Positions 33,044-44,768 of a stretch of 64,000 nt of DNA are shown here, piece by piece. The stretch is taken from contig DAIPYJ010000011.1 in NCBI GenBank assembly GCA_036782775.1, positions 1,317 to 65,316 on the forward strand, written 5' to 3'. A program made the position numbers and the translations under genes. Position 1 is the stretch's first letter. Every line of letters starts with the position of its first letter. The notes under the pieces are model-generated. The model searched no databases. It was not told the DNA's origin and worked only from the letters and a program-made list of their open reading frames with translations. The stretch comes from Candidatus Dormiibacterota bacterium (GTDB taxonomy: Bacteria; Chloroflexota; Dormibacteria; CF-121).

Positions 33044-34531
33044 TTACGCGGTCTGGCTCGCCTCGACGAACGTGTCCGGGCCGCGGTCAAACGCCTTTGC
33101 GCACCCTGGATTGCAGAAGTAATAGGTTGTTCCGTTGTAGTCGCGCTTGGCCGCCGCTGACTGCGTGTCGACGGTCATTCCGCACACCGGGTCGGTTGCC
33201 TCTGCCATCGTTGGCCTCCTTAGCTCGTGTTCCGTCTCCGTTTGCTCACTGGGTTGAGTCGAGAACCGGTCGGGGTTGGCGGTGAATCGTTCGCGACAGC
33301 GGTCGGAACAGAAGTAAATAGTCTGGGTGCCCCGGGGCAGGCTCGCCGGCGCGAGCGCCCGCTCGACCTGCATCCCACATACCGGGTCCATCGCGTACCG
33401 CGCGCCCCCACCGAGCCGCTCGCGGTTTCGGTACAGCCAGAAGAGCAGCGCGAAAAGGCCCAGGAAAACGAGGTTGAGATACGTCGTGTAATTCCACTGC
33501 AAAGCGGGCTGCACGACCTGGACCGGACGCGACGCCGGCACCAGCCCAGCCCAGGTGAAGAGATATTCGGTTGCCAGCCCGGCCGCCGCCATCACCAGCC
33601 AGAAGGCGCCCAGGAGGCGAAGCGTCAGCGTCCAGCCGTAAAAGCGTCGATAGATAAGAAGGAGCGGAAACGTGATCAGGTCGGCGAAGATGAAGCTCCC
33701 CACGCCGCCGAAGCTGATGCCGCCCTTCCAGAGGGCCGCCGCCAGCGGCACGTTGCCGATCGAGCAGACGAAGCTGATGATGGCGATCAGCGGCCCGACA
33801 ATCACGTTTTCGACTGAGGTGGCCACGCCGTGGCCGTGGAAGAAGATCGCGTTCCAGAACGCGTTCGGAACCAGAACGGCAAGGAAGCCGGCAACCAGGT
33901 ATCCGGCCACCATCTCCTTGCGCAGCATGACGAGGTCGGCCATCGTATAGCTCGCCGCATCGGCCCAGCCGGCGGGCGAGCGGAGACGACGACTCAGCGG
34001 AACGGTGTGCGGTTGGTCTGCCACGGGCTCGTGGTTGTTGTGACCTACGCTCCGGTCAGATCCACCAACGCCCGCCAGTTTTTGCCGCGCTCGCTCCACC
34101 AGCGCCGGCCGGAAGAAGAACCGGGCAACGAGCGCAAGCAGCGCGATCATGATGATGCCGCCGACGTACTCGCTCACGGCAAACTGCCAGCCGATCAAGA
34201 TCCAGAGCACGAGGCCGAGTTCGATCACCAGGTTGGTCGACGCCAGCATGAACACCATGGCGGTGGTGAAGTCGGCGCCCTTCGCAAAGAGCGACTTCGC
34301 CATCGCGCTCGCGGCATAGGAGCAGGACGAGGATGCGGCGCCGAAGGCGGCGGCGATTCCGAGGGTGCGGGGCCGGTGATCGCCCATCACCCGCTGCATT
34401 TCGGAACGAGAAACGAAGGCCTGGACGGCGCCCGAGAGGCCGAAGCCGAAGATCAGCGGCCACAGGGTATCCCATAACATAAAAAACGCCATGCGGAGGC
34501 TGTCGCCGACGGCACTGAGCACGTGGATCAT
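33044..34531 (-). CDS. DUF318-type permease fused to two YHS/TRASH domains
   Basis: SSSCSY and SFVCSIGNVP permease motifs; DPVCGM...YFCS..C and DPVCGM...YFCNPGC. Confidence 0.88.
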   Translation of the reverse strand: MIHVLSAVGDSLRMAFFMLWDTLWPLIFGFGLSGAVQAFVSRSEMQRVMGDHRPRTLGIAAAFGAASSSCSYAASAMAKSLFAKGADFTTAMVFMLASTNLVIELGLVLWILIGWQFAVSEYVGGIIMIALLALVARFFFRPALVERARQKLAGVGGSDRSVGHNNHEPVADQPHTVPLSRRLRSPAGWADAASYTMADLVMLRKEMVAGYLVAGFLAVLVPNAFWNAIFFHGHGVATSVENVIVGPLIAIISFVCSIGNVPLAAALWKGGISFGGVGSFIFADLITFPLLLIYRRFYGWTLTLRLLGAFWLVMAAAGLATEYLFTWAGLVPASRPVQVVQPALQWNYTTYLNLVFLGLFALLFWLYRNRERLGGGARYAMDPVCGMQVERALAPASLPRGTQTIYFCSDRCRERFTANPDRFSTQPSEQTETEHELRRPTMAEATDPVCGMTVDTQSAAAKRDYNGTTYYFCNPGCAKAFDRGPDTFVEASQTA

Positions 34532-34550
34532 TCGGTGGCCTGGCTCCTGA

Positions 34551-34826
34551 TTACGCCTTCGCGAATCGCTCGACGGCCTTGACCAGCTCGTCGACCTTCG
34601 ACTTGTCACCCTGGCGCACCGCCGTGGTCACGCAGCCCTTGATGTGATCCTCGAGCAGGAGGAACGCGACCTGGTCAAGAGCCGCCTTGACGGCGTTGAC
34701 CTGGGTGAGGACGTCGATGCAGTAGATGTCTTCGGCGACCATTCGAGAAACCCCCCGAACCTGGCCTTCCACTCTCCCGAGGCGGGCCAAGAGCGCGTCT
34801 TTGTCCTTTCGATAGCCCGGCTTCAT
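34551..34826 (-). CDS. csoR: CsoR/RcnR family metal-sensing repressor
   Basis: RLGRVEGQVRG, YCIDVLTQ, LLEDHIKGCV (C-H-C copper ligands). Confidence 0.9.
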   Translation of the reverse strand: MKPGYRKDKDALLARLGRVEGQVRGVSRMVAEDIYCIDVLTQVNAVKAALDQVAFLLLEDHIKGCVTTAVRQGDKSKVDELVKAVERFAKA

Positions 34827-37136: not shown

Positions 37137-37820
37137 CTACGCGCGTGAGGCGGTAACCGGGCGAATGCGGGCAAAAGCGCTCAAGGGCGCCCATCTTGGG
37201 AGGGCTTGAGCAACCGCCGGCATTCCTTCGAGTCGAATCAAACCTCGGCCAAGAGCGTCCTGCCAGGAGATCAATCCGGCGTGCCACCTGGTGAGCCATT
37301 CGGCGGTCGTGGTCACCACCAGATCTTCATCGAATCCAGGTGGCTTCAAACAGACCTCGGCCTCAGGACGCTGGAAAACCACCCAATACCGCTCTCTTTT
37401 CCGTCCGGTTAGGTCGAAGCGCACCGTACGGCGTTGGCGCGGAAGCGACTCCGGCGACGCCAGGCGGCAGATGGCCCAGAGGACGACGAAGGCATCGTAG
37501 TCGCCCGACCCAAGTTCGATCCAGCGCGCGCCCCAGGCGCCGAGGGCCATGGTGACTTCCTTCAGCTCCTGCCCGGCCGGCGTCAGAAAGTAGAGGTGCC
37601 CACGCCCATCCGGGTTCGGCCGCATCTCGACAACACCCAGCCGGCTGAGTTCTCTGAGCCGCCGGGTCAGGAGCGTACGGGACATTCTCGGCACCCCCTC
37701 AGCAATGGCGTTGAAGGAATGGCACCCGAGCATCAGGTTTCGAACGATCAACGGCGTCCAGCGTTCGGCGAAGATCGCCGCGCCGCGCGCGATCGGACAG
37801 TACTGGTTGTATTCCGTCAC
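37137..37820 (-). CDS. HxlR family winged-helix regulator with C-terminal SCP2-like domain
   Basis: YNQYCPIARGA, ERWTPLIVRNL, LCLKPPG-type motif (EVCLKPPGFDED). Confidence 0.88.
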   Translation of the reverse strand: MTEYNQYCPIARGAAIFAERWTPLIVRNLMLGCHSFNAIAEGVPRMSRTLLTRRLRELSRLGVVEMRPNPDGRGHLYFLTPAGQELKEVTMALGAWGARWIELGSGDYDAFVVLWAICRLASPESLPRQRRTVRFDLTGRKRERYWVVFQRPEAEVCLKPPGFDEDLVVTTTAEWLTRWHAGLISWQDALGRGLIRLEGMPAVAQALPRWAPLSAFARIRPVTASRA

Positions 37821-37904
37821 GCCTTCAGTTTCGCATGGCTGGATCGAAACGCAAGTACATTTTTCGTCCTTGCCATTCGGCCAGCCATTGTCCAGACTGA
37901 CGGC

Positions 37905-39275
37905 GTGCTTACCACGCCGACCTTGGCCGAGTTTACCGGTCGCCTGATCGGACAGCAAGACCCTGACTACGATTCCGCCCGGCGAATCTGGAACGATGCG
38001 ATCGACCGGCGGCCGTTGCTGATCGCGCAGTGCGCTAATAGCGACGACGCAGCCCGAGCGCTGGCCTTTACGCGAAAGGAGGGGCTCCCAATCAGCGTCC
38101 GCGGTGGCGGGCATAATGTGGCAGGCTCAGCGCTCTGCGACGACGGAATCGTTGTTGACTTCTCGGCGTTGCGGAAGGTGGAGGTCGATCCACAACTGCG
38201 AGTCGCACGGGTGCAGCCGGGGGCTTTGTGGAGTGATCTGGATAGTGCCACTCAGGCACACGGACTGGCCACGCCGGCCGGCATCGTAACCCACACCGGT
38301 GTCGCGGGACTCACTGTGGGAGGAGGCTTCGGCTGGTTGAGCCGGCGCTGGGGCCTATCTTCCGACAACCTGGTGGGAGCTCAGGTCCTGCTTGCCGACG
38401 GTACTCGGTTGCATGCGAGCGCTGACGAGAATTCAGACCTCTTCTGGGCGATTTCCGGAGGCGGAGGCAACTTCGGCATCGTCACGGAGTTCGAGTTCCG
38501 GCTCCATCCGCTTGGAAAGGAAGTCCTGGCGGGTCCCTTGCTTTATCGCCCTGACCAAGCCCGTGAGGTCCTCGCCTTCTATCGCGAGTTTATCGCCAGC
38601 GCTCCCGATGAGCTCGCTGTGTATCTCAACCTTCGAACGGCGCCCCCGTTCGATTGGGTGCCACCCGACGTACGAGGCACGAACGTGCTGATCGTCATTC
38701 CGTTCTATTCCGGTGACCTCGACCGCGGTGAAGCACTCCTCGAACCGCTGCGCCGCTTCAGGCCGCCCGTGGCAGACCTGGTTCGCCGCCAGCCCTACCT
38801 GACTCATCAAGGCTTCTTGGACGCGAGCGTCCCCCACCACTGGGGCTACTACTGGAAGTCGCACTACCTTCCTCCGCTGAGTGACGGTGCCATTGATGTC
38901 TTGCTGAGCCGTGCATGGCAAAAGACGTCACCCTCGTCCTACACGCTCCTCTTTCACATGGGCGGTGCGATCGCCCGGCGTCCTGCAGACTTCTCCGCGG
39001 CGGGCGGACGCGATGCCGCTCATGCCATCAACATCAACGCTGCCTGGTCCCAGGGCGGCCCACAGCACCCAGACATTGGCTGGTGTCGCGAGTTCTTCGG
39101 GGCGATGGAACCACACGCCACCGGCAGCGTTTATGTGAATTTCCTGCACAATGATGAAGGCGAGTCGCGGATCCGTGCCGCCTACGGCGACCGGTATGAC
39201 CGACTCGCTCGGATCAAGGCACGTTACGACCCGGATAACGTCTTCCGTTCGAATCAGAACATCAAGCCGGCTTGA
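37905..39275 (+). CDS. FAD-binding oxidoreductase (berberine-bridge/VAO-PCMH family)
   Basis: RGGGHNVAG, GGGGNFGIVT, YVNF, YDPDNVFRSNQNI motifs. Confidence 0.92.
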   Translation: MLTTPTLAEFTGRLIGQQDPDYDSARRIWNDAIDRRPLLIAQCANSDDAARALAFTRKEGLPISVRGGGHNVAGSALCDDGIVVDFSALRKVEVDPQLRVARVQPGALWSDLDSATQAHGLATPAGIVTHTGVAGLTVGGGFGWLSRRWGLSSDNLVGAQVLLADGTRLHASADENSDLFWAISGGGGNFGIVTEFEFRLHPLGKEVLAGPLLYRPDQAREVLAFYREFIASAPDELAVYLNLRTAPPFDWVPPDVRGTNVLIVIPFYSGDLDRGEALLEPLRRFRPPVADLVRRQPYLTHQGFLDASVPHHWGYYWKSHYLPPLSDGAIDVLLSRAWQKTSPSSYTLLFHMGGAIARRPADFSAAGGRDAAHAININAAWSQGGPQHPDIGWCREFFGAMEPHATGSVYVNFLHNDEGESRIRAAYGDRYDRLARIKARYDPDNVFRSNQNIKPA

Positions 39276-39684: not shown

Positions 39685-39891
39685 TTAGCTGCGGGCTTGG
39701 CGCAACTTCTGTGTCTGGCGGATAGCGTCACGAAATTCAACGATCATCTCTTGATACGCCGTCACCTCAAGAGCCGCCACCGTCTGACCAGCGGCGACGA
39801 GCCGGCCTTTGATGGCGACGGACGCGAAGTAGGCGCCGTTGTAGTACGGCAGCAGATTCTCGAACTTGAACGCGGGATCGCCCCTAGCCAT
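39685..39891 (-). CDS. 68-aa hypothetical protein coupled to the selenoperoxiredoxin-like gene
   Basis: ATG overlaps the upstream stop region; ENLLPYYNGAYFASVAIK, helical. Confidence 0.6.
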   Translation of the reverse strand: MARGDPAFKFENLLPYYNGAYFASVAIKGRLVAAGQTVAALEVTAYQEMIVEFRDAIRQTQKLRQARS

Positions 39892-40342
39892 GGCTGAGCG
39901 CTTCCAGGACCACCGCATCTTTGGGCCGATCAGCGAAATCTCTGCCTTCGTATACATAGCGGATGAGGCCCGTCTGATCGGCAAGCACCAGCGCGGGCTT
40001 CGAGATCCGACCCGAGGAATCCCACAGCCCGAACCGCTTGATGACAACCTCACCCTCGGGATCACTCAAGAGGTCAAATGGCAGAAGGAGTTTGTCGATC
40101 ATGGCTTGGTTCTGCTCTGGCGAATCGACCGAGATCCCGTAGATCCGGATTTGCCGCTTTTGAAACTCTTCCCATTTCCTGGCGAAGCTGACCAGCTGCC
40201 CATTGCAGTAGGGTCACCAATCACCCCGATAGAAGATCACCAGGTTCGGCCCTGCAGGATCGGGCAATGACCTCTCAGATCCAGACTGATCTTGGAGGAC
40301 AAAGGTCGGCAGACGGCTTCCAGCAGAAAGGCCAGGCGACAT
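39884..40342 (-). CDS. AhpC/TSA peroxiredoxin-like protein with in-frame TGA (probable selenocysteine, U-P-Y-C)
   Basis: MSPGLSAGSRLPTFVLQDQSG...LVIFYRGDW-TGA(40216-40214)-PYCNGQL...YGISVDS...LLSDP...FADRP; 152 aa with readthrough. Confidence 0.88.
40181..40200 (-). promoter_or_regulatory. Candidate bacterial SECIS hairpin
   Basis: GGC-AGCT-GGUC-AGCT-UC-GCC; apical loop starts with GG, 20 nt after the UGA. Confidence 0.55.
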
Positions 40343-40422: not shown

Positions 40423-40470
40423 ACTCAGGGTAACGTCGTCCTGTAGTTGTGTACCGTGAAGACTGGCTCA

Positions 40471-41103
40471 ATGCGCCGGACGCGTGTCCGCTCCATCCTC
40501 TCGATTGCCGCCCCGGTGCTGCTGTTTGTCGGCATCTTTCTGGTGCGTGGTGGCTACTTTGGCGAACTCATCAATCGCGTCGGTGAGACAGGGTCACCGG
40601 TTTCCGTTCACCAGCTGAACGACATCGGCACCTTGCAGCAGGCATTCAATCACGATGCCGGTACGCCGCGGCTCATCCTGCTGGTCTCCCCCACTTGACC
40701 GGACTGCAATGCCGGCGCCCGTTGGGTGCAGCAGGAGATTTTGAAGAAACACCCGTCGGTTCCGCTGCGGGTTGAGGTCGTCTGGCTGCCGATGCTGACC
40801 GGCGACTCCGAGCAGTTGATCGATCGGCGCGTCCTCTCCGATCCACGAGTCAGCTATTACTGGGATCCCCATCGGATCGTCGGCCAGTGGTTCTCGAGCC
40901 ACGTGACGCAGCAACCGGGCATCACCTGGGATGCGTTCTTTCTCTACGGGGCCCAGGCAGGGTGGGACTCCACACCGGGTCCGCTGGTTGCCTCTGGCTC
41001 GAGCATCATCGGCAACACCGGCCAGCTCAGGGCCGGGTTCAATCAGATTCAGCCGTCAAGTAGCACGGCCGCTGTGCCGGGTCCATCCACGCCGCGCTCC
41101 TAG
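40471..41103 (+). CDS. Membrane-anchored thioredoxin-fold protein with in-frame TGA (probable selenocysteine, U-P-D-C)
   Basis: N-terminal TM helix; RLILLVSPT-TGA(40696-40698)-PDCNAGARWVQ...VVWLPML...YYWD...WDAFFLY; joins ORFs 40447-40698 and 40726-41103 in one frame (210 aa). Confidence 0.88.
40715..40729 (+). promoter_or_regulatory. Candidate bacterial SECIS hairpin
   Basis: GCGCCC-GUU-GGGUGC; G-led loop 22 nt after the UGA. Confidence 0.55.
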
Positions 41104-41109
41104 GCACGC

Positions 41110-41982
41110 GTGTCGCTTGGGATACGGCGGACCTGGCTCGGAATTGCAGCCGCGGCAGGCGCCCTCTTCCTGGCTGCGCTCGCCGCGTTCATTTTGGCCC
41201 CGGATGGCCATTTCGCGATCGGCGTCGAATCCGCTTCGTCAGCCGCTTCCGCGCTCGCCCAGCGTCCCAGTCAGTCGCTGCCTCGGATCTACGCCCTCTT
41301 CGCCGGCATGGTGGCCGCCTTCAATCCGTGCGGATTCGCCCTGTTACCGGCGTATCTAGGCCTTTACCTTCAGGATGACCGCGGCCGCCGTCGTTCGATC
41401 GCCACCACCATCTCGACCCCGCTCAAGGTATCGCTCAGCGTCACCGCCGCCTTCGTCGCGGTGTTCGGTCTGGTCGGGCTTGCGGTTGGCGTCGCGGGAA
41501 CAGCGATCTCATCAGTGCTTCCGCTGGTTGGGTTCATCATCGGCGTCGTCCTTATCGTAGTCGGCGGTGCGGTTCTGTCAGGCTGGAGCCTGGACACAGC
41601 CAGCACGACCAAGCTTGCCGACCGGCTCGGGCCGGCCGCCGGTCGCACCACCATGTCTGGATATTTCGCCTACGGGATCGCCTACGCGCTGGCATCCCTT
41701 GGCTGCACCTTGCCGGTCTTTCTCACCGTCCTTGGGCTTGCACCCCTTGCCGGCGGCCTGCTTGGCGGACTGCTGCAATTTCTGCTCTATGGCATCGGCA
41801 TGGCCGTCGTCCTGGCGGTACTGACGATCGCGGCCGCCCTCTTCAAGACCGAGCTCTTGCGCCGACTGCGTGGCGTCGGACGGATCATCGAGCCAGCCGG
41901 CGCCATCTTGCTTTTGCTCGTCGGCGCTTACGTGGTCTATTACTGGGTTACCCTTGGCGGACTCTTCCGTGGCACTGCCTGA
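41110..41982 (+). CDS. CcdA/DsbD-beta-like transmembrane thiol-disulfide electron carrier
   Basis: AFNPCGFALLPAY and ASLGCTLPVF, the two CcdA Cys motifs. Confidence 0.88.
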   Translation: MSLGIRRTWLGIAAAAGALFLAALAAFILAPDGHFAIGVESASSAASALAQRPSQSLPRIYALFAGMVAAFNPCGFALLPAYLGLYLQDDRGRRRSIATTISTPLKVSLSVTAAFVAVFGLVGLAVGVAGTAISSVLPLVGFIIGVVLIVVGGAVLSGWSLDTASTTKLADRLGPAAGRTTMSGYFAYGIAYALASLGCTLPVFLTVLGLAPLAGGLLGGLLQFLLYGIGMAVVLAVLTIAAALFKTELLRRLRGVGRIIEPAGAILLLLVGAYVVYYWVTLGGLFRGTA

Positions 41983-42676
41983 TCCCGAGAGCACGCCCGG
42001 TGTCGGTTTGCGGATTGAGATTCGCGGCCTGAGCCACGAGTACGGAACGCCTCACGCAAGGGTCCAGGCACTGACGGACATCTCATTCGAGGTGTCCGCT
42101 GGTGATTACGTAGCCCTCATGGGTCCGTCCGGCGCCGGCAAAAGCACCTTGCTGGCCCTCCTCGGTGGGCTCGACCGCCCTCAAGAGGGAACGTTGGCCA
42201 TCGACGGGCGCGATATGCGGGCGCTCAGTCGTGATCAGCTGGCCGAGTATCGGCGCACCACGGTTGGCTTCGTATTCCAGCACTTCGGGCTGGTCGACCT
42301 GCTGACCGCTGCCGAGAACGTCGAGCTGGCCTTGTCATTGGCGGGCGTGCCTCCGCACCAGCGGCGGCAACACGTCGGTGCCCTGCTGTCCTCCGTCGGC
42401 CTGCTCGAGCGACGCAACCACCGGCCATCGTCGCTCAGCGGCGGTGAGCGTCAACGGGTCGCGATCGCGCGGGCGCTCGCCAATGATCCACGGTTGCTCC
42501 TCGCGGACGAGCCGACTGGAAATCTCGATAGCAAGACCGCCGTCGGCGTCATGGACCTGCTCGAGAGCCTCCGGCGTGAGCGCGGTTGCACTCTCCTGGT
42601 GGTCACCCACAATCCGCTGGTCGCTGCTCGCGCCGATCGCCGCGTCGTCATCGATTCTGGCCGGATCGTCCTATGA
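41969..42676 (+). CDS. ABC ATPase (LolD/MacB-type)
   Basis: GPSGAGKST, LSGGERQRV, LLADEPTGNLD motifs. Confidence 0.95.
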   Translation: MALPDPESTPGVGLRIEIRGLSHEYGTPHARVQALTDISFEVSAGDYVALMGPSGAGKSTLLALLGGLDRPQEGTLAIDGRDMRALSRDQLAEYRRTTVGFVFQHFGLVDLLTAAENVELALSLAGVPPHQRRQHVGALLSSVGLLERRNHRPSSLSGGERQRVAIARALANDPRLLLADEPTGNLDSKTAVGVMDLLESLRRERGCTLLVVTHNPLVAARADRRVVIDSGRIVL

Positions 42677-44010
42677 GCTGGCGAGACGAACTGACGCTGG
42701 CGCTACGAAGCCTGCTGCGTCGCCCCGGACGGACGGCAATCACCCTGTTGGCGGTCGTTCTGGGGACCGGGCTGCTGGTCGCATTGGGAAGCGTCGGCGC
42801 GACGGCGGATTCCCGCATCGTCAGCCAGCTGAGCAAGGGTGGTCCGGCAGCGGCGATCAAGGTGGCGGCTGCCCTTCCAAACCCCGGGCAGCTCGACAGT
42901 GACAACCTTCAGGCCGGCGCTCCGAAGAACATCGACGACGCGGCGGTGGGAGCCATTCGGCGCGCGCCCTATGTCGCCTCGGTGGTACCGTTCCTGGCGG
43001 CTCCGGTGCTCGCCATTCCACCGCCGCAGGGTCTGTCCGCGGTACCAGGTACCAACGGTGAGACGCCCATCTTGCCGAATTGGATCTTCGACGCCATGGT
43101 TGGCACCGACCTGAGTCAGGTGAACAACCTCCCGATCACGGTCCTCGCCGGCCGGCTGCCGAGCCTCCATTCGCTGGACGAAGTCGCGGTGACGCAAGGG
43201 TACCTCGATCATCTTCATCTCGATGTCCACCATCCGGGAGTCGTGCTCGGGACGGAGATCGAGGTCGGAATGCCGCAATCGCACGTCATCAATGGCAACC
43301 TGCGGCGCCAGGCGCGCTGGATCAAGGCCCGGGTCGTCGGCGTCGTCGCCCAACAAGTCGGCGACGGCGAATTTCTGGTTCCCCTCGAGCAGGCGCAGAT
43401 CGCGCGGGGATGGGCGCTACAAGGGATCAGTGACGGCGATGATCCGTTGCCGGTTTCGCCTTATTCCGGCCTGGTGGTCGTGGCGGGCAGTCTCGACCAG
43501 GTGCATACAGTCCGCGCCGAGATCACCGTCCTCGGATATGCCACCAGTGCCCCCGAGCATCTGGTTGCATCCGTGCAGAAATATCTCCATGTGGTCGATA
43601 TCGTTCTCGGTGGCATCGGCACCATCGCCCTGGTGATCGCCTGCCTGGGGATCGCGAACGCTTTACTTGCCGCCGTCCGCGAACGCCGGCGGGAAATTGG
43701 GGTGCTGAAAGCCATCGGGGCACGCGACCAGGACATCCTTCGCTGGTTTCTCATCGAGGCGCTCGCGGTGGGAGCTCTGGGCGGCGCGATCGGCACGTTG
43801 CTCGGCGTCCTGGTTGCGGAAGGGCTTGGTCAATCCGTCAACCACTATCTCCTGACCCAGGGGTTGCAAAGCGTGTCGCTGGGCGAGGTCTCGCCGGCTC
43901 TGCTCGCCGCCGGTGTCCTTGGCACGGTCTTGCTCGCGTTGCTGGCTGCGGTCGCGCCGGCGCTACAGGCGGCGCGGCTGCCTGCCCTCGAGGCGGTGAG
44001 CGCGGCATGA
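42673..44010 (+). CDS. FtsX/MacB-type ABC permease
   Basis: N-terminal TM, large extracytoplasmic domain, ERRREIGVLKAIGA; ATGA overlap. Confidence 0.92.
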   Translation: MSWRDELTLALRSLLRRPGRTAITLLAVVLGTGLLVALGSVGATADSRIVSQLSKGGPAAAIKVAAALPNPGQLDSDNLQAGAPKNIDDAAVGAIRRAPYVASVVPFLAAPVLAIPPPQGLSAVPGTNGETPILPNWIFDAMVGTDLSQVNNLPITVLAGRLPSLHSLDEVAVTQGYLDHLHLDVHHPGVVLGTEIEVGMPQSHVINGNLRRQARWIKARVVGVVAQQVGDGEFLVPLEQAQIARGWALQGISDGDDPLPVSPYSGLVVVAGSLDQVHTVRAEITVLGYATSAPEHLVASVQKYLHVVDIVLGGIGTIALVIACLGIANALLAAVRERRREIGVLKAIGARDQDILRWFLIEALAVGALGGAIGTLLGVLVAEGLGQSVNHYLLTQGLQSVSLGEVSPALLAAGVLGTVLLALLAAVAPALQAARLPALEAVSAA

Positions 44011-44768
44011 GGTTGCGGCTGAGCTCGCTTTGCCTGCTGAGCCTCGTCCTGACGCTGGCGGCCTGCACATCGCTTACTCCAACGGGAGCCCGGCGGTCGA
44101 CGCCAAGTCCGAGACCCGCTGCCGTGGCTGCGCCCGTGGTCTATGCCGCGCTCGGGGCGAGCGAGACGGTTGGCGTCGGGGTGGGTGATCACCTCCGGCA
44201 GGCCTGGCCGCAGATCTTCTTCAACATCGCCTTGCCGGATTCGGCGGTCTTTTACAACTTCGGATTCCCTGGCGCGACGACCGCCGACGCGCTGCAGCTG
44301 GAACTGCCGGCGGCGATTGGCGTCCATCCGACGATCGTCACCATCTGGCTCAACGTCAATGATCTGATCGCGGGCGTTTCACCAGTCACCTACGAGACCG
44401 AGCTGCAGCAGTTAGTCCAGCGGTTGCGAGCCGCCGGTACTCGCGAGATTCTGATCGCGAATACCCCCTACCTCGATCGGCTCCCTGCGTATCTCAGCTG
44501 CAATGCGCCATCCGGGTCGCTCCACTGTCCCTTCCCCGCAGAGGCGCCGACCGCAGCCCAGCTCAACGCCATGGTCGACGCCTACAACGCCGGCATCCAA
44601 TGCGTAGCAGCCGAGGAATCCGCGGTTGTTGTCGACCTGCACACGCAGGGAGAATTGCCCGATCTCCATCCCGACTATCTCAGCGCGGATGGCCTTCACC
44701 CCAATGCCAGGGGTTACGCCGCGATCGCCTCGGCCTTCAAGGCGGCGCTGGCCGGGAAGACGCCTTAG
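44007..44768 (+). CDS. SGNH/GDSL hydrolase lipoprotein
   Basis: Lipobox LAAC; ALGASETVG, WLNVND, DGLHP motifs. Confidence 0.88.
   Translation: MRLRLSSLCLLSLVLTLAACTSLTPTGARRSTPSPRPAAVAAPVVYAALGASETVGVGVGDHLRQAWPQIFFNIALPDSAVFYNFGFPGATTADALQLELPAAIGVHPTIVTIWLNVNDLIAGVSPVTYETELQQLVQRLRAAGTREILIANTPYLDRLPAYLSCNAPSGSLHCPFPAEAPTAAQLNAMVDAYNAGIQCVAAEESAVVVDLHTQGELPDLHPDYLSADGLHPNARGYAAIASAFKAALAGKTP

Follow-up and report, generated by a model that had tools for sequence, protein, structure and literature searches.

A putative exported selenoprotein with a thioredoxin fold, encoded beside a CcdA-like gene, from a soil-bacterial family without a name in protein-family databases

Comparative analysis of the window, by which we mean the whole 64,000-nucleotide stretch of a Candidatus Dormiibacterota contig, confirmed the prediction that two short open reading frames (ORFs) on its forward strand are one gene, whose product would be a membrane-anchored, outward-facing protein of the thioredoxin fold with selenocysteine (Sec) in the first position of its active site. 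The best explanation of the locus, which we hold with somewhat more belief than doubt, is an exported selenoprotein with a redox centre of the TlpA/DsbE/ResA/CcmG type that would be kept reduced by a CcdA-like membrane protein, and a CcdA-fed reductase is its most likely function. Judged from its sequence, the protein would belong to a large soil-bacterial family that has no name in protein-family databases; the family is new but of a kind that is well known. The features of the locus are as follows.

39884..40342, minus strand: putative second selenoprotein gene, AhpC/TSA (Prx-like), divergent, with TGA 40214-40216 in GDW-U-PYC
40471..41103, plus strand: predicted selenoprotein coding sequence, complete, 210 codons, Sec as residue 76, stop TAG 41101-41103
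40471..40551, plus strand: N-terminus MRRTRVRS, then one hydrophobic helix (residues 9-27), a predicted signal anchor (hydropathy, charge)
40603..41040, plus strand: thioredoxin-fold domain, approximate limits, residues ~45-190 (alignment A2, AlphaFold model, Foldseek)
40696..40698, plus strand: UGA putatively read as Sec (residue 76), first position of the U-P-D-C redox motif (40696-40707)
40715..40729, plus strand: SECIS-type hairpin within the coding sequence, arms GCGCC 40715-40719 and GGUGC 40725-40729, loop CGUUG
41110..41982, plus strand: CcdA-like (DsbD_2) membrane protein, 7 nt downstream of the selenoprotein (Pfam DsbD_2, TM scan)
41870..44768, plus strand: ABC ATPase, MacB/FtsX-type permease (to 44010) and GDSL-family protein with lipobox (44007-44768) (Pfam)

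One gene with an in-frame UGA

The ORFs at 40447-40698 (+) and 40726-41103 (+) lie in the same frame, 279 nt apart in the ORF listing, and the translation of 40447-41106 has one stop only between them, the TGA at 40696-40698, which bears out the original prediction of one frame split at the first position of a CxxC-type motif. Because the translation puts this TGA within SPT*PDC (in its context, ...LILLVSPT*PDCNAGARWVQ...), the reading T-U-P-D-C is correct. The start is likely the ATG at 40471, with the TTG at 40447 as the alternative, and the layout of one frame with an internal TGA is common to the orthologous loci L001 and L004-L008.

Among the related genome loci, which were found with an alignment of 12 closer family sequences, TGA occupies the site column in about 62 of the approximately 65 with a resolvable site (GTDB species representatives), and it does so in all five distinct metagenomic orthologue loci. 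The genomes with TGA span at least eight phyla (Dormibacterota, Chloroflexota, Acidobacteriota, Actinomycetota, Gemmatimonadota, Latescibacterota, Planctomycetota, Nitrospinota, KSB1 and Saccharimonadales are represented), and the protein sequence is kept on both sides of the codon. In L002/L003, L079, L084 and L085 the codon is TGC instead, the Cys homologue P0003 reads SPT-C-PVC at the site, and Cys occupies it in 63 of the 76 representative clusters whose sequence extends over the site. Among the best 150 representatives, a further 73 are fragments with their start just past the site, a pattern as would be expected of miscalled Sec genes. Synonymous changes exceed non-synonymous ones equally before and after the TGA, third-codon-position differences predominate on both flanks, and the first possible start downstream of the TGA varies in position among homologues. 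Neither a permanent termination at this column nor a conserved internal start was found in the homologues, and the proposed read-through of the UGA as Sec is upheld by the TGA in about 62 genomes, the Cys homologues, the two-sided coding signature and a covarying hairpin.

It is, in our estimation, very improbable that the TGA is a true stop, leaving two small genes or a pseudogene, or that UGA stands for an amino acid other than Sec. Such a view could draw on the splitting of the locus by gene callers in every database entry, on the two representative clusters with tryptophan at the site, which may stem from code-4 translation, and on the Sec machinery, since a tRNA scan found no tRNA in the 64-kb window and no SelA, SelB or SelD was seen among the ~45 ORFs scanned in it, the window being a fraction of the genome. 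A pseudogene, however, is contradicted by a stop that lies at one column across at least eight phyla, with equal purifying selection on either side. Split into two genes, the locus would yield an upstream product of no more than a signal anchor and half a strand, and a downstream product devoid of strand 1, redox motif and export signal, whose first possible start moreover shifts between homologues. Also against a true stop are the Cys in the same column of homologues, the covariation of the hairpin and the termination of other window genes with TGA.

Indirect evidence that the organism would decode Sec comes from the adjacent Prx-like gene, of a catalogued selenoprotein family, whose UGA occupies the place of the catalytic Cys: when Cys is put in place of the stop, the AhpC-TSA match of its product spans it (E 1.4e-27, residues 8-130). 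Sec insertion itself, which we infer from sequence comparison, would proceed by SelB recoding UGA 40696, guided by the in-frame hairpin at 40715-40729.

This hairpin begins 16 nt after the UGA and has an invariant loop G at 40721, in agreement with the claim made for it at the outset, as the loop G is the 23rd nucleotide after the TGA, with 22 nt separating the two. An optional sixth pair gives the arms GCGCC(C) 40715-40719(20) and (G)GGUGC (24)25-40729, with the loop (C)GUU(G). Folding of the window sequence alone was indistinguishable from that of shuffles (z = +0.92 over 81 nt and z = -0.17 over 45 nt), owing to the GC-richness of the region, and covariation was therefore used instead of thermodynamics. 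The five pairs are formed in 98.8% of cells (49 distinct sequences), shifting the 3' partners by 1-3 columns lowers pairing to 23-58%, and none of 500 shuffles attains the observed pairing or covariation. At pair 24-36 of alignment A4, the combinations are CG (39), UA (5), GC (2), GU (1) and UG (1), and each column falls on a third codon position (Gly, Val), so that these are compensating changes at synonymous sites; divergent members have other hairpins at the same place, also with compensating changes. These observations argue for a SECIS-type stem-loop conserved as a structure, with G in its apical loop, although its conservation may partly reflect that of the peptide GARWV, given that the close Cys homologue L002 retains the same hairpin. 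The idea that Cys forms go without the hairpin was dropped, the sample being too small: the three distant Cys loci lose the register, with 2-3 of the five pairs, but the close Cys homologue keeps it. Rfam, which is not known to include a bacterial SECIS model, gave nothing at the gathering threshold across the whole window.

Fold, family and predicted location

Structure prediction and the search for representatives made use of P0003, a Cys homologue that shares 55% identity with the window protein. Its AlphaFold model is a thioredoxin fold (pLDDT 92.5, pTM 0.85) whose helix 1 carries the redox pair at its N-terminus, and structurally it is nearest to the TlpA/DsbE/ResA/CcmG group, the top Foldseek matches being Mycobacterium tuberculosis DsbE (1lu4), ResA, StoA, DsbF and CcmG (E 5e-5 to 1e-3, TM up to 0.67), while a profile search against PDB sequences has only thioredoxin-fold proteins as its top matches. 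Foldseek places glutathione peroxidases (GPx) nearly level with the reductases, with TM-scores normalised to the target of 0.47-0.55 for GPx and 0.57-0.67 for DsbE/ResA. The TlpA/DsbE-type thioredoxin fold that had been predicted is supported, but membership of a named TlpA, Redoxin or Thioredoxin family does not hold at the level of sequence. The read-through product and 10 relatives match no Pfam or NCBIfam model, and among the 49 members of alignment A2, searched at E <= 10, Redoxin matches three (best 0.029), AhpC-TSA one (E 0.17), and Thioredoxin_8 and GSHPx none; the window protein has no match to HMA of Pfam either.

The family pattern that emerges from alignment A2 is FN.D.G.PRL.LL.SPT(U/C)P.C..GA.W ... 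VW ... PGD ... D.RV..WD ... WD.Y.LYG ... W. Close orthologues carry the dipeptides PT and PS, which also occur in CcmG and DsbF. Reductases of the TlpA/DsbE/ResA/CcmG type carry a cis-proline loop that faces the active site, whereas in A2, to go by the alignment and not by coordinates, there is no conserved Pro before the strand WD.Y.LYG and a conserved W-D is found instead. The family comprises 1,195 clusters at 50% identity and extends over at least eight phyla, most of them soil-dwelling, Sec forms make up about half of the closest 150 clusters, and all named database entries for the gene and its relatives read 'hypothetical protein'. A text search of the GOS sequence supplements, covering part of the files, found none of the motifs LSPTU, SPTUP, FLYGP and YAVWF. 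The family is set apart from catalogued selenoproteins by Pfam and NCBIfam models, and may coincide with families that exist in CDD only or with the 'Redoxin family protein'.

After MRRTRVRS comes ILSIAAPVLLFVGIFLV, the sole hydrophobic segment of the protein (Kyte-Doolittle 2.25 over 19 residues), for which an N-in/C-out anchor topology is predicted; with the N-terminus inside and a single anchor helix, the thioredoxin-fold domain would lie outside the cytoplasmic membrane. The extracytoplasmic location is a prediction only, and its bases are the anchor helix with its positive N-flank, the signals of relatives and the topology of fusions. In almost every Sec locus a signal peptide, lipobox or anchor stands 35-56 residues ahead of the Sec site, and the fusions place the family domain behind 6+2 TM helices, in keeping with the outward-facing domain proposed earlier. 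An extracytoplasmic selenol is less unusual than was then claimed, as periplasmic and extracellular selenoproteins are known or predicted: formate dehydrogenases with Sec are known in the periplasm (PMC3160892), DsbA-like, DsbG-like and thiol:disulfide-interchange selenoproteins have been predicted (PMC9312934, PMC13188914), and SaoB/SaoC are extracellular selenoproteins (10.1101/2022.07.06.499078).

Neighbouring genes and candidate functions

That the next gene encodes a CcdA-like protein, as originally proposed, is corroborated by a match to Pfam DsbD_2 above the cut-off (29.1 bits against 24.9, E 1.1e-6), with DsbD_TM just under its own (26.1 bits against 27.1). The TM scan gives the protein of 41110-41982 an extra N-terminal helix and six core helices, with Cys in the motifs FNPCG of core helix 1 and GCTLP of core helix 4. 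Its NCBIfam matches, ArsG and DsbD, are weak, the best being the ArsG organoarsenical permease, which aligns end to end (E 9e-8) far under the cut-off. A CcdA-like homologue lies directly downstream of the family gene in L001, L004-L008, L013, L016, L017, L018 and L039, which brings in three further phyla, while most family members have no adjacent CcdA-like gene. In P0030 and P0031, a CcdA-like core (with FNPCG and GCTLP) precedes two additional helices, behind which comes the family domain; this is the DsbD beta-gamma layout. We presume that the CcdA-like protein is the partner of the selenoprotein.

The genes of the ABC ATPase, permease and GDSL-family protein are probably co-transcribed with the selenoprotein, and the ABC ATPase ORF, which opens at 41870, probably has its true start near 41987, by comparison with L001. 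As general conserved partners they were discarded, since this order is confined to the close relatives L001, L004 and L008; in L013 the downstream ABC gene is of a different type. A Prx-like selenoprotein gene also adjoins the family gene in L012, but the product of the one in the window has no export signal and is therefore no obvious partner.

According to the mechanism that we propose, the U-P-D-C pair outside the membrane would act as a selenol/thiol redox centre in which Sec76 would attack and Cys79 would resolve, and the CcdA-like two-cysteine membrane protein would keep this centre reduced with reducing equivalents from the cytoplasm. The original prediction of a Sec-dependent TlpA/DsbE-like reductase is sustained as to Sec, fold, location and neighbour, and its reductase part stays provisional, in view of the metal contexts of relatives; we infer both the reductase activity and the direction of electron flow. 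Weighing on the other side of a CcdA-fed reductase are the absence of a CcdA-like gene beside most family members, many of which lie beside MerR/MerT genes or are fused to HMA, the lack of TlpA, Redoxin or Thioredoxin_8 profile matches, the W-D that apparently replaces the cis-proline, the high Foldseek rank of glutathione peroxidases and the ArsG permease as the best, though weak, NCBIfam match of the CcdA-like protein. The family contexts suggest that the physiological setting may be envelope stress from thiophilic metals, metalloids or oxidants.

Metal handling has to be taken as a serious rival because relatives occur in MerR-MerT, ArsR, HMA and CDF contexts, and we consider it possible, though clearly less probable than the CcdA-fed redox centre. 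The U-x-x-C of the same exported selenoprotein would then bind a thiophilic metal or metalloid (Hg, Cu, As or similar) and exchange it with a cysteine-pair carrier, MerT-like elsewhere and CcdA/DsbD_2-like here, in the role of MerP on a thioredoxin fold. In Acidobacteriota a MerR-type regulator is followed by a MerT-like gene, the family gene and often zf_CopZ, which puts the family gene in the merP position (Pfam-confirmed in L022, L020 and L023, and by tblastn in L065, L045, L061 and L059). In P0028 and P0177 family domains occur in fusion with HMA domains, in L065 a CDF cation-efflux gene comes after a second UGA paralogue, whose tail is rich in Cys, and in L013 an ArsR-family regulator lies directly upstream of the family gene and its CcdA-like gene. 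The end-to-end alignment of the CcdA-like protein with ArsG would fit as well, as would the Thr ahead of the first Cys or Sec, which recalls the HMA motif, MTCxxC, and the invariant charged residues, more numerous in A2 than in ordinary TlpA-like reductases. The window locus, however, has no MerR, MerT, HMA or ArsR gene beside it, the fold and the CcdA fusion layout belong to electron-transfer systems, and true reductases also occur in metal-regulated operons, the Scs system and the TlpA-ScoI pair being examples. ScsB is an electron transporter of the DsbD class (PMC3322552). The stricter version, in which an uncatalogued exported selenoprotein family captures thiophilic metals or metalloids with a selenol outside the cytoplasmic membrane and relays them to MerT-like or CcdA-like carriers, replacing MerP and reducing no disulfides, appears to us a little less probable again.

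We give still less credit to an envelope peroxidase, in which the Sec of the same exported protein would be peroxidatic, Cys79 resolving and the CcdA-like protein in charge of recycling; such an activity seems improbable. The glutathione peroxidases 2p5r, 2vup and 6vpd are among the best Foldseek matches (E 6e-5 to 1e-4), the conserved W-D at a strand start in A2 may resemble the WNF motif of GPx, a Prx-like selenoprotein gene is the divergent neighbour here and adjoins the family gene in L012, and an envelope peroxiredoxin dependent on the DsbD family is known (PMC3322552). Nevertheless, apart from the one faint AhpC-TSA match in 49 members there is no GSHPx or AhpC-TSA profile match, the target-normalised TM-scores are higher for DsbE/ResA than for GPx, and the Prx-like neighbour is without an export signal.

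Significance and relation to known systems

The public entries for the gene and its relatives are all split into two 'hypothetical proteins', and about 73 of the 150 closest cluster representatives are cut off at the Sec codon; a family model with a Sec exception would mend hundreds of annotations. Sec-based thiol chemistry outside the membrane would be widespread in Acidobacteriota, Gemmatimonadota, Chloroflexota, Dormibacterota and Actinomycetota, including those of soil and forest samples, and the recurrent MerR-MerT, ArsR, HMA and CDF contexts provide a concrete hypothesis that links selenium use to metal stress in soil. Bacterial selenoproteins are most often of the thioredoxin-fold UxxC kind, and in this respect the finding is therefore an incremental one. 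The family is relevant to a view of long standing, by which oxygen is unfavourable to reactive selenols (PMC9312934).

The catalogued bacterial UxxC selenoproteins of the thioredoxin fold include PF13098 (thiol:disulfide interchange), PF01323 (DsbA-like), NF041057 (DsbG-like), cd02966 (thiol-disulfide isomerase-like), PF08534 (Redoxin family protein) and NF045500 GOS_C (PMC9312934, PMC13188914, PMC2398784). The window protein resembles them in having Sec first in UxxC, a SECIS within the coding sequence and Cys homologues, and several of these families are also predicted to be periplasmic; their Pfam and NCBIfam models, however, miss the window protein and 10-49 members, the only trace being faint Redoxin matches (E >= 0.029) in 3 of 49. 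With MerP it has in common a small exported protein with T-C/U-x-x-C, which in the Acidobacteriota relatives is encoded directly after MerT-like genes under a MerR-type regulator, but MerP has the HMA fold in place of the thioredoxin fold, and the window copy has no adjacent mer genes.

The proteins of the TlpA/DsbE/ResA/CcmG group (for example DsbE 1lu4, ResA 1su9 of Bacillus subtilis and CcmG 1kng) are alike in the thioredoxin fold with an N-terminal extension, the redox pair at the start of helix 1, the anchor or signal peptide and the partner of CcdA/DsbD type. They differ in an identity of 12-18%, without a profile match, and in the Sec that here would replace the first Cys; the window family is apparently without the cis-proline (alignment A2), and the group lacks the set of invariant Asp, Arg and Trp of the window family. 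In the ScsB-TlpA-PprX system of the Caulobacter envelope, a transporter of the DsbD family feeds an exported TlpA-like protein, a peroxiredoxin being part of the system (PMC3322552). Its components are all of the Cys type and its peroxiredoxin is exported, unlike the Prx-like neighbour described here, which has no signal. DsbD and DipZ, the latter a CcdA-thioredoxin fusion of M. tuberculosis, are in contrast to the separate genes of the window and have a thioredoxin domain of another family, and the CcdA-like part in the window belongs to the DsbD_2 type, its match to DsbD itself being weak. Even so, the arrangement of DsbD beta plus gamma, with the thioredoxin domain outside, is shared by P0030 and P0031.

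Predicted selenocysteine at an in-frame TGA

The original prediction joined two ORFs into one frame with a TGA at the first CxxC position, and the sequence bears this out: the ORFs listed at 40447-40698 and 40726-41103 (+ strand) share a frame, and translation of 40447-41106 places a single stop between them, TGA 40696-40698, in the context TPRLILLVSPT-stop-PDCNAGARWVQQEIL. The N-terminus, MRRTRVRS, is followed by ILSIAAPVLLFVGIFLV, the sole strongly hydrophobic segment. The relevant features of the window are:

40471-41103, +, candidate selenoprotein frame (ATG 40471; 210 residues; TGA codon 76)
41110-41982, +, CcdA-like gene
40342-39884, -, Prx-like AhpC/TSA gene (TGA 40214-40216; motif GDW-U-PYC)
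37434-39275, +, FAD/BBE oxidase
37137-38114, -, HxlR-family regulator
33044-34609, -, permease of the ArsP_1 type carrying two fused metal-binding YHS domains, ~6 kb upstream of the candidate frame

With Cys replacing the stop, the read-through product matched only eight proteins in a word-indexed search, seven of them fragments of 118-126 residues starting past the TGA; the one full-length match, P0003, is a Cys homologue with the motif SPT-C-PVC-HAGARW. In the DNA encoding the fragments (L001 and L004-L008, five distinct loci) a TGA stands at the identical column, and upstream of it an anchor helix and the pattern GGY.GEL..R.GE.GS.V.VH....I..L...FN.D.GTPRL..LVSPT are conserved in-frame. Comparison of the window with four orthologues shows differences mostly in the third position of codons, before as well as after the TGA (for example, 10/6/28 by codon position upstream and 20/9/50 downstream), with synonymous codon changes exceeding non-synonymous ones on either side. 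An exhaustive search with P0003 (E <= 1e-3) matched 1,195 clusters; the redox site is covered by 76 of the best 150 representatives, and 73 begin just past it. The alignment with Cys homologues that had been proposed as a check came out in favor, with Cys at the site in P0003 and in 63 of these 76, the others having Ser (6), Gly (1), Trp (2) or an undetermined residue (4). One genome per species was scanned, which gave 79 loci, every one in a metagenome-assembled genome; they belong to Dormibacterota (the closest, at 54-56% identity), Chloroflexota, Acidobacteriota, Actinomycetota, Gemmatimonadota, Latescibacterota, Planctomycetota, Nitrospinota, KSB1, Saccharimonadales, and other phyla. Among loci with a resolvable codon, ~62 have TGA and three TGC. 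A stop kept at the same column through such divergence, where the alternative is Cys, constitutes the standard signature of Sec. We are highly confident that the gene at 40471-41103 encodes this residue.

The hairpin reported downstream is indeed present, its arms GCGCC (40715-40719) and GGUGC (40725-40729) enclosing the loop CGUUG. The window sequence alone proves no structure, since the region is no stabler than dinucleotide shuffles (z +0.92; z -0.17). In an alignment of 49 distinct Sec-form sequences, starting at the Thr codon preceding the TGA, the five proposed pairs are formed in 98.8% of cells, against 23-58% when the partners are slid 1-3 columns as a control, and the observed values for pairing and covariation are not attained in any of 500 shuffles. 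One pair is informative, linking the third base of a Gly codon with that of a Val codon (C-G 39, U-A 5, G-C 2, G-U 1, U-G 1), a coupling that protein selection cannot explain because both positions are synonymous; loop base 2 is always G. Four divergent loci (L081, L082, L086, and L087), with a different peptide, have other hairpins of 5-6 bp at equal distance from the TGA, also with compensating changes between relatives. This evidence is qualified on two counts: the hairpin is retained in the close Cys homologue (L002; GUGCC/GGCGC), and loss of its register is seen in a sample of only three distant Cys loci.

The divergently transcribed Prx-like gene is relevant to whether the organism decodes Sec: with Cys for its stop, the AhpC/TSA Pfam model matches across the stop (E 1.4e-27), and it belongs to the catalogued selenoprotein family "Prx-like thiol:disulfide oxidoreductase, UxxC" (PMC9312934). 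Its product has no export signal, and a homologue 48% identical adjoins the family gene in a Dormibacterota locus (L012). The window contains no tRNA and no Rfam match, and no SelA, SelB, or SelD among the ~45 ORFs scanned, which says nothing either way when 64 kb of a genome is covered.

Export signals and gene neighborhood

The frame upstream of the site was examined in 79 redox sites from the loci and the window (73 TGA, 6 TGC). Nearly all Sec loci encode a run of basic residues together with a hydrophobic segment whose end lies 35-56 residues ahead of Sec; among these segments are classical signal peptides (...LILAGALSWASQAGA), lipoboxes (LLVACQSG, LLAACASG, LSALSCAP), and anchors like that of the window. 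P0030 and P0031 are fusions in which a CcdA-like protein of the window's type (FNPCG and GCTLP motifs) precedes the family domain; two further helices follow the CcdA-like core, which predicts an outer position for the domain like that in DsbD. P0068 is a further candidate fusion. A TM scan of the CcdA-like protein in the window gives six core helices preceded by one additional N-terminal helix. The basic N-terminus and anchor, the export signals, and the predicted fusion topology all agree with the outward-facing domain originally proposed. P0003 and one L021 paralogue carry no export signal, and therefore the family is not exclusively exported.

A CcdA-like homologue lies directly downstream of the family gene in close orthologues and in L013 (Chloroflexota), L016 (Terriglobales), and L017, L018, L039 (Actinomycetota), and is missing from most other loci; the order of the ABC/FtsX/GDSL genes that follow it in the window is repeated in close relatives only. 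In the closest Cys-form gene, that of P0003 (L002/L003, 1125-1661), the encoded N-terminus is not hydrophobic, and an unrelated ORF of 95 residues takes the place of the CcdA-like gene downstream. The order in Acidobacteriota is a MerR-type regulator, a MerT-like gene, the family (Sec) gene and often a zf_CopZ protein (confirmed with Pfam for L022, L020, and L023, and detected by tblastn in L065, L045, L061, and L059), the family gene holding the slot of MerP in mer operons (e.g., L022 3326-4931). An ArsR-family regulator lies upstream in L013, and HMA domains are present in P0028 and P0177. These two, P0021, and P0165 are multi-domain relatives, one an HMA fusion and one a YceI fusion; some combine two domain copies, HMA, and a C-terminal "DF family (seleno)protein"/Thioredoxin_3-like domain. 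In two Terriglobia genomes (L031/L032 and L033/L034), two family-gene copies each, with identical flanks, stand beside a DDE transposase, which suggests carriage on a mobile element. Two loci hold a second paralogue, with an in-frame TGA in each copy:

L065, 421-1473 and 3392-4414, the first copy with a Cys-rich C-terminal tail and preceding a CDF cation-efflux gene
L021, 1968-2630 and 2627-3202, the second copy being the one without export signal

Fold and possible function

Pfam-A and NCBIfam gave no match for the protein or for ten relatives; at E <= 10, at most three of 49 family members matched a profile (best, Redoxin, 0.029), and all entries in public sources are named "hypothetical protein." A profile of the 49 full-length members gave only weak matches to PDB sequences (E 0.16-1.4), the top ones being thioredoxin-fold proteins aligned over strand 1 and the CxxC. 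The structure prediction that had been suggested, run with AlphaFold2 on P0003 and the 49-member alignment, returned a thioredoxin fold (pLDDT 92.5, pTM 0.85) of the order beta-alpha-beta ... beta-alpha-beta-beta-alpha, with the redox pair opening a helix. Foldseek ranked Mycobacterium tuberculosis DsbE first among PDB structures, followed by ResA, StoA, DsbF, CcmG, and other DsbE/TlpA-like proteins interleaved with glutathione peroxidases (E 5e-5 to 1e-3, TM-score up to 0.67, identity 12-18%). The TlpA/DsbE-like assignment holds for the fold and nearest structural class, but by sequence the family appears separate from the named ones. Invariant residues (P0003 numbering) are F39, R47, S53, P54, C59, W85, D92, D104, R106, D112, D134, and W145, with no evident cis-proline in the family alignment. 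Some full-length members (P0023, P0027, P0029) have Ser or Gly at the first Cys/Sec (SPTSPVC, SPTGVEC), and the second Cys is nearly invariant; the Trp of two representatives possibly reflects TGA translated under code 4.

The MerR/MerT, ArsR, HMA, and CDF contexts fit both a stress reductase and metal binding by U-x-x-C. For the window copy we favor, by a modest preference, a CcdA-fed reductase that would work under metal or oxidant stress: the fold points this way, as do the fusions resembling DsbD, the CcdA-like gene next door, and the dipeptides PT and PS that close orthologues have in common with CcmG and DsbF. A metal relay ranks second as a tentative option; here U-x-x-C would itself bind metal and pass it to or from a membrane carrier with a cysteine pair. 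A peroxidase, the class interleaved among the structural matches, is third and rather unlikely. Last comes a genuine stop, or a different recoding of the TGA, which is very improbable against the column conservation.

Comparison with catalogued selenoproteins

None of the Pfam/NCBIfam models that define catalogued selenoprotein families matches this one, and for that reason it is filed as a new family of thioredoxin-fold UxxC selenoproteins, and not under TlpA/DsbE. By text search, its motifs had no match in the portions covered of the GOS sequence supplements. Set apart by Pfam/NCBIfam models, the putative family may overlap with CDD-only families or with "Redoxin family protein," and is of a known kind: the 2022 and 2026 prokaryotic inventories hold many thioredoxin-fold UxxC families, several periplasmic by homology, such as DsbA-like, DsbG-like, thiol:disulfide interchange protein, and thiol-disulfide isomerase-like (PMC9312934, PMC13188914). 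Contrary to the original view of an unusual place for a selenol, the extracytoplasmic location is not unprecedented, since, besides these families, exported selenoproteins are known in the periplasmic formate dehydrogenases (PMC3160892) and in SaoB and SaoC (10.1101/2022.07.06.499078).
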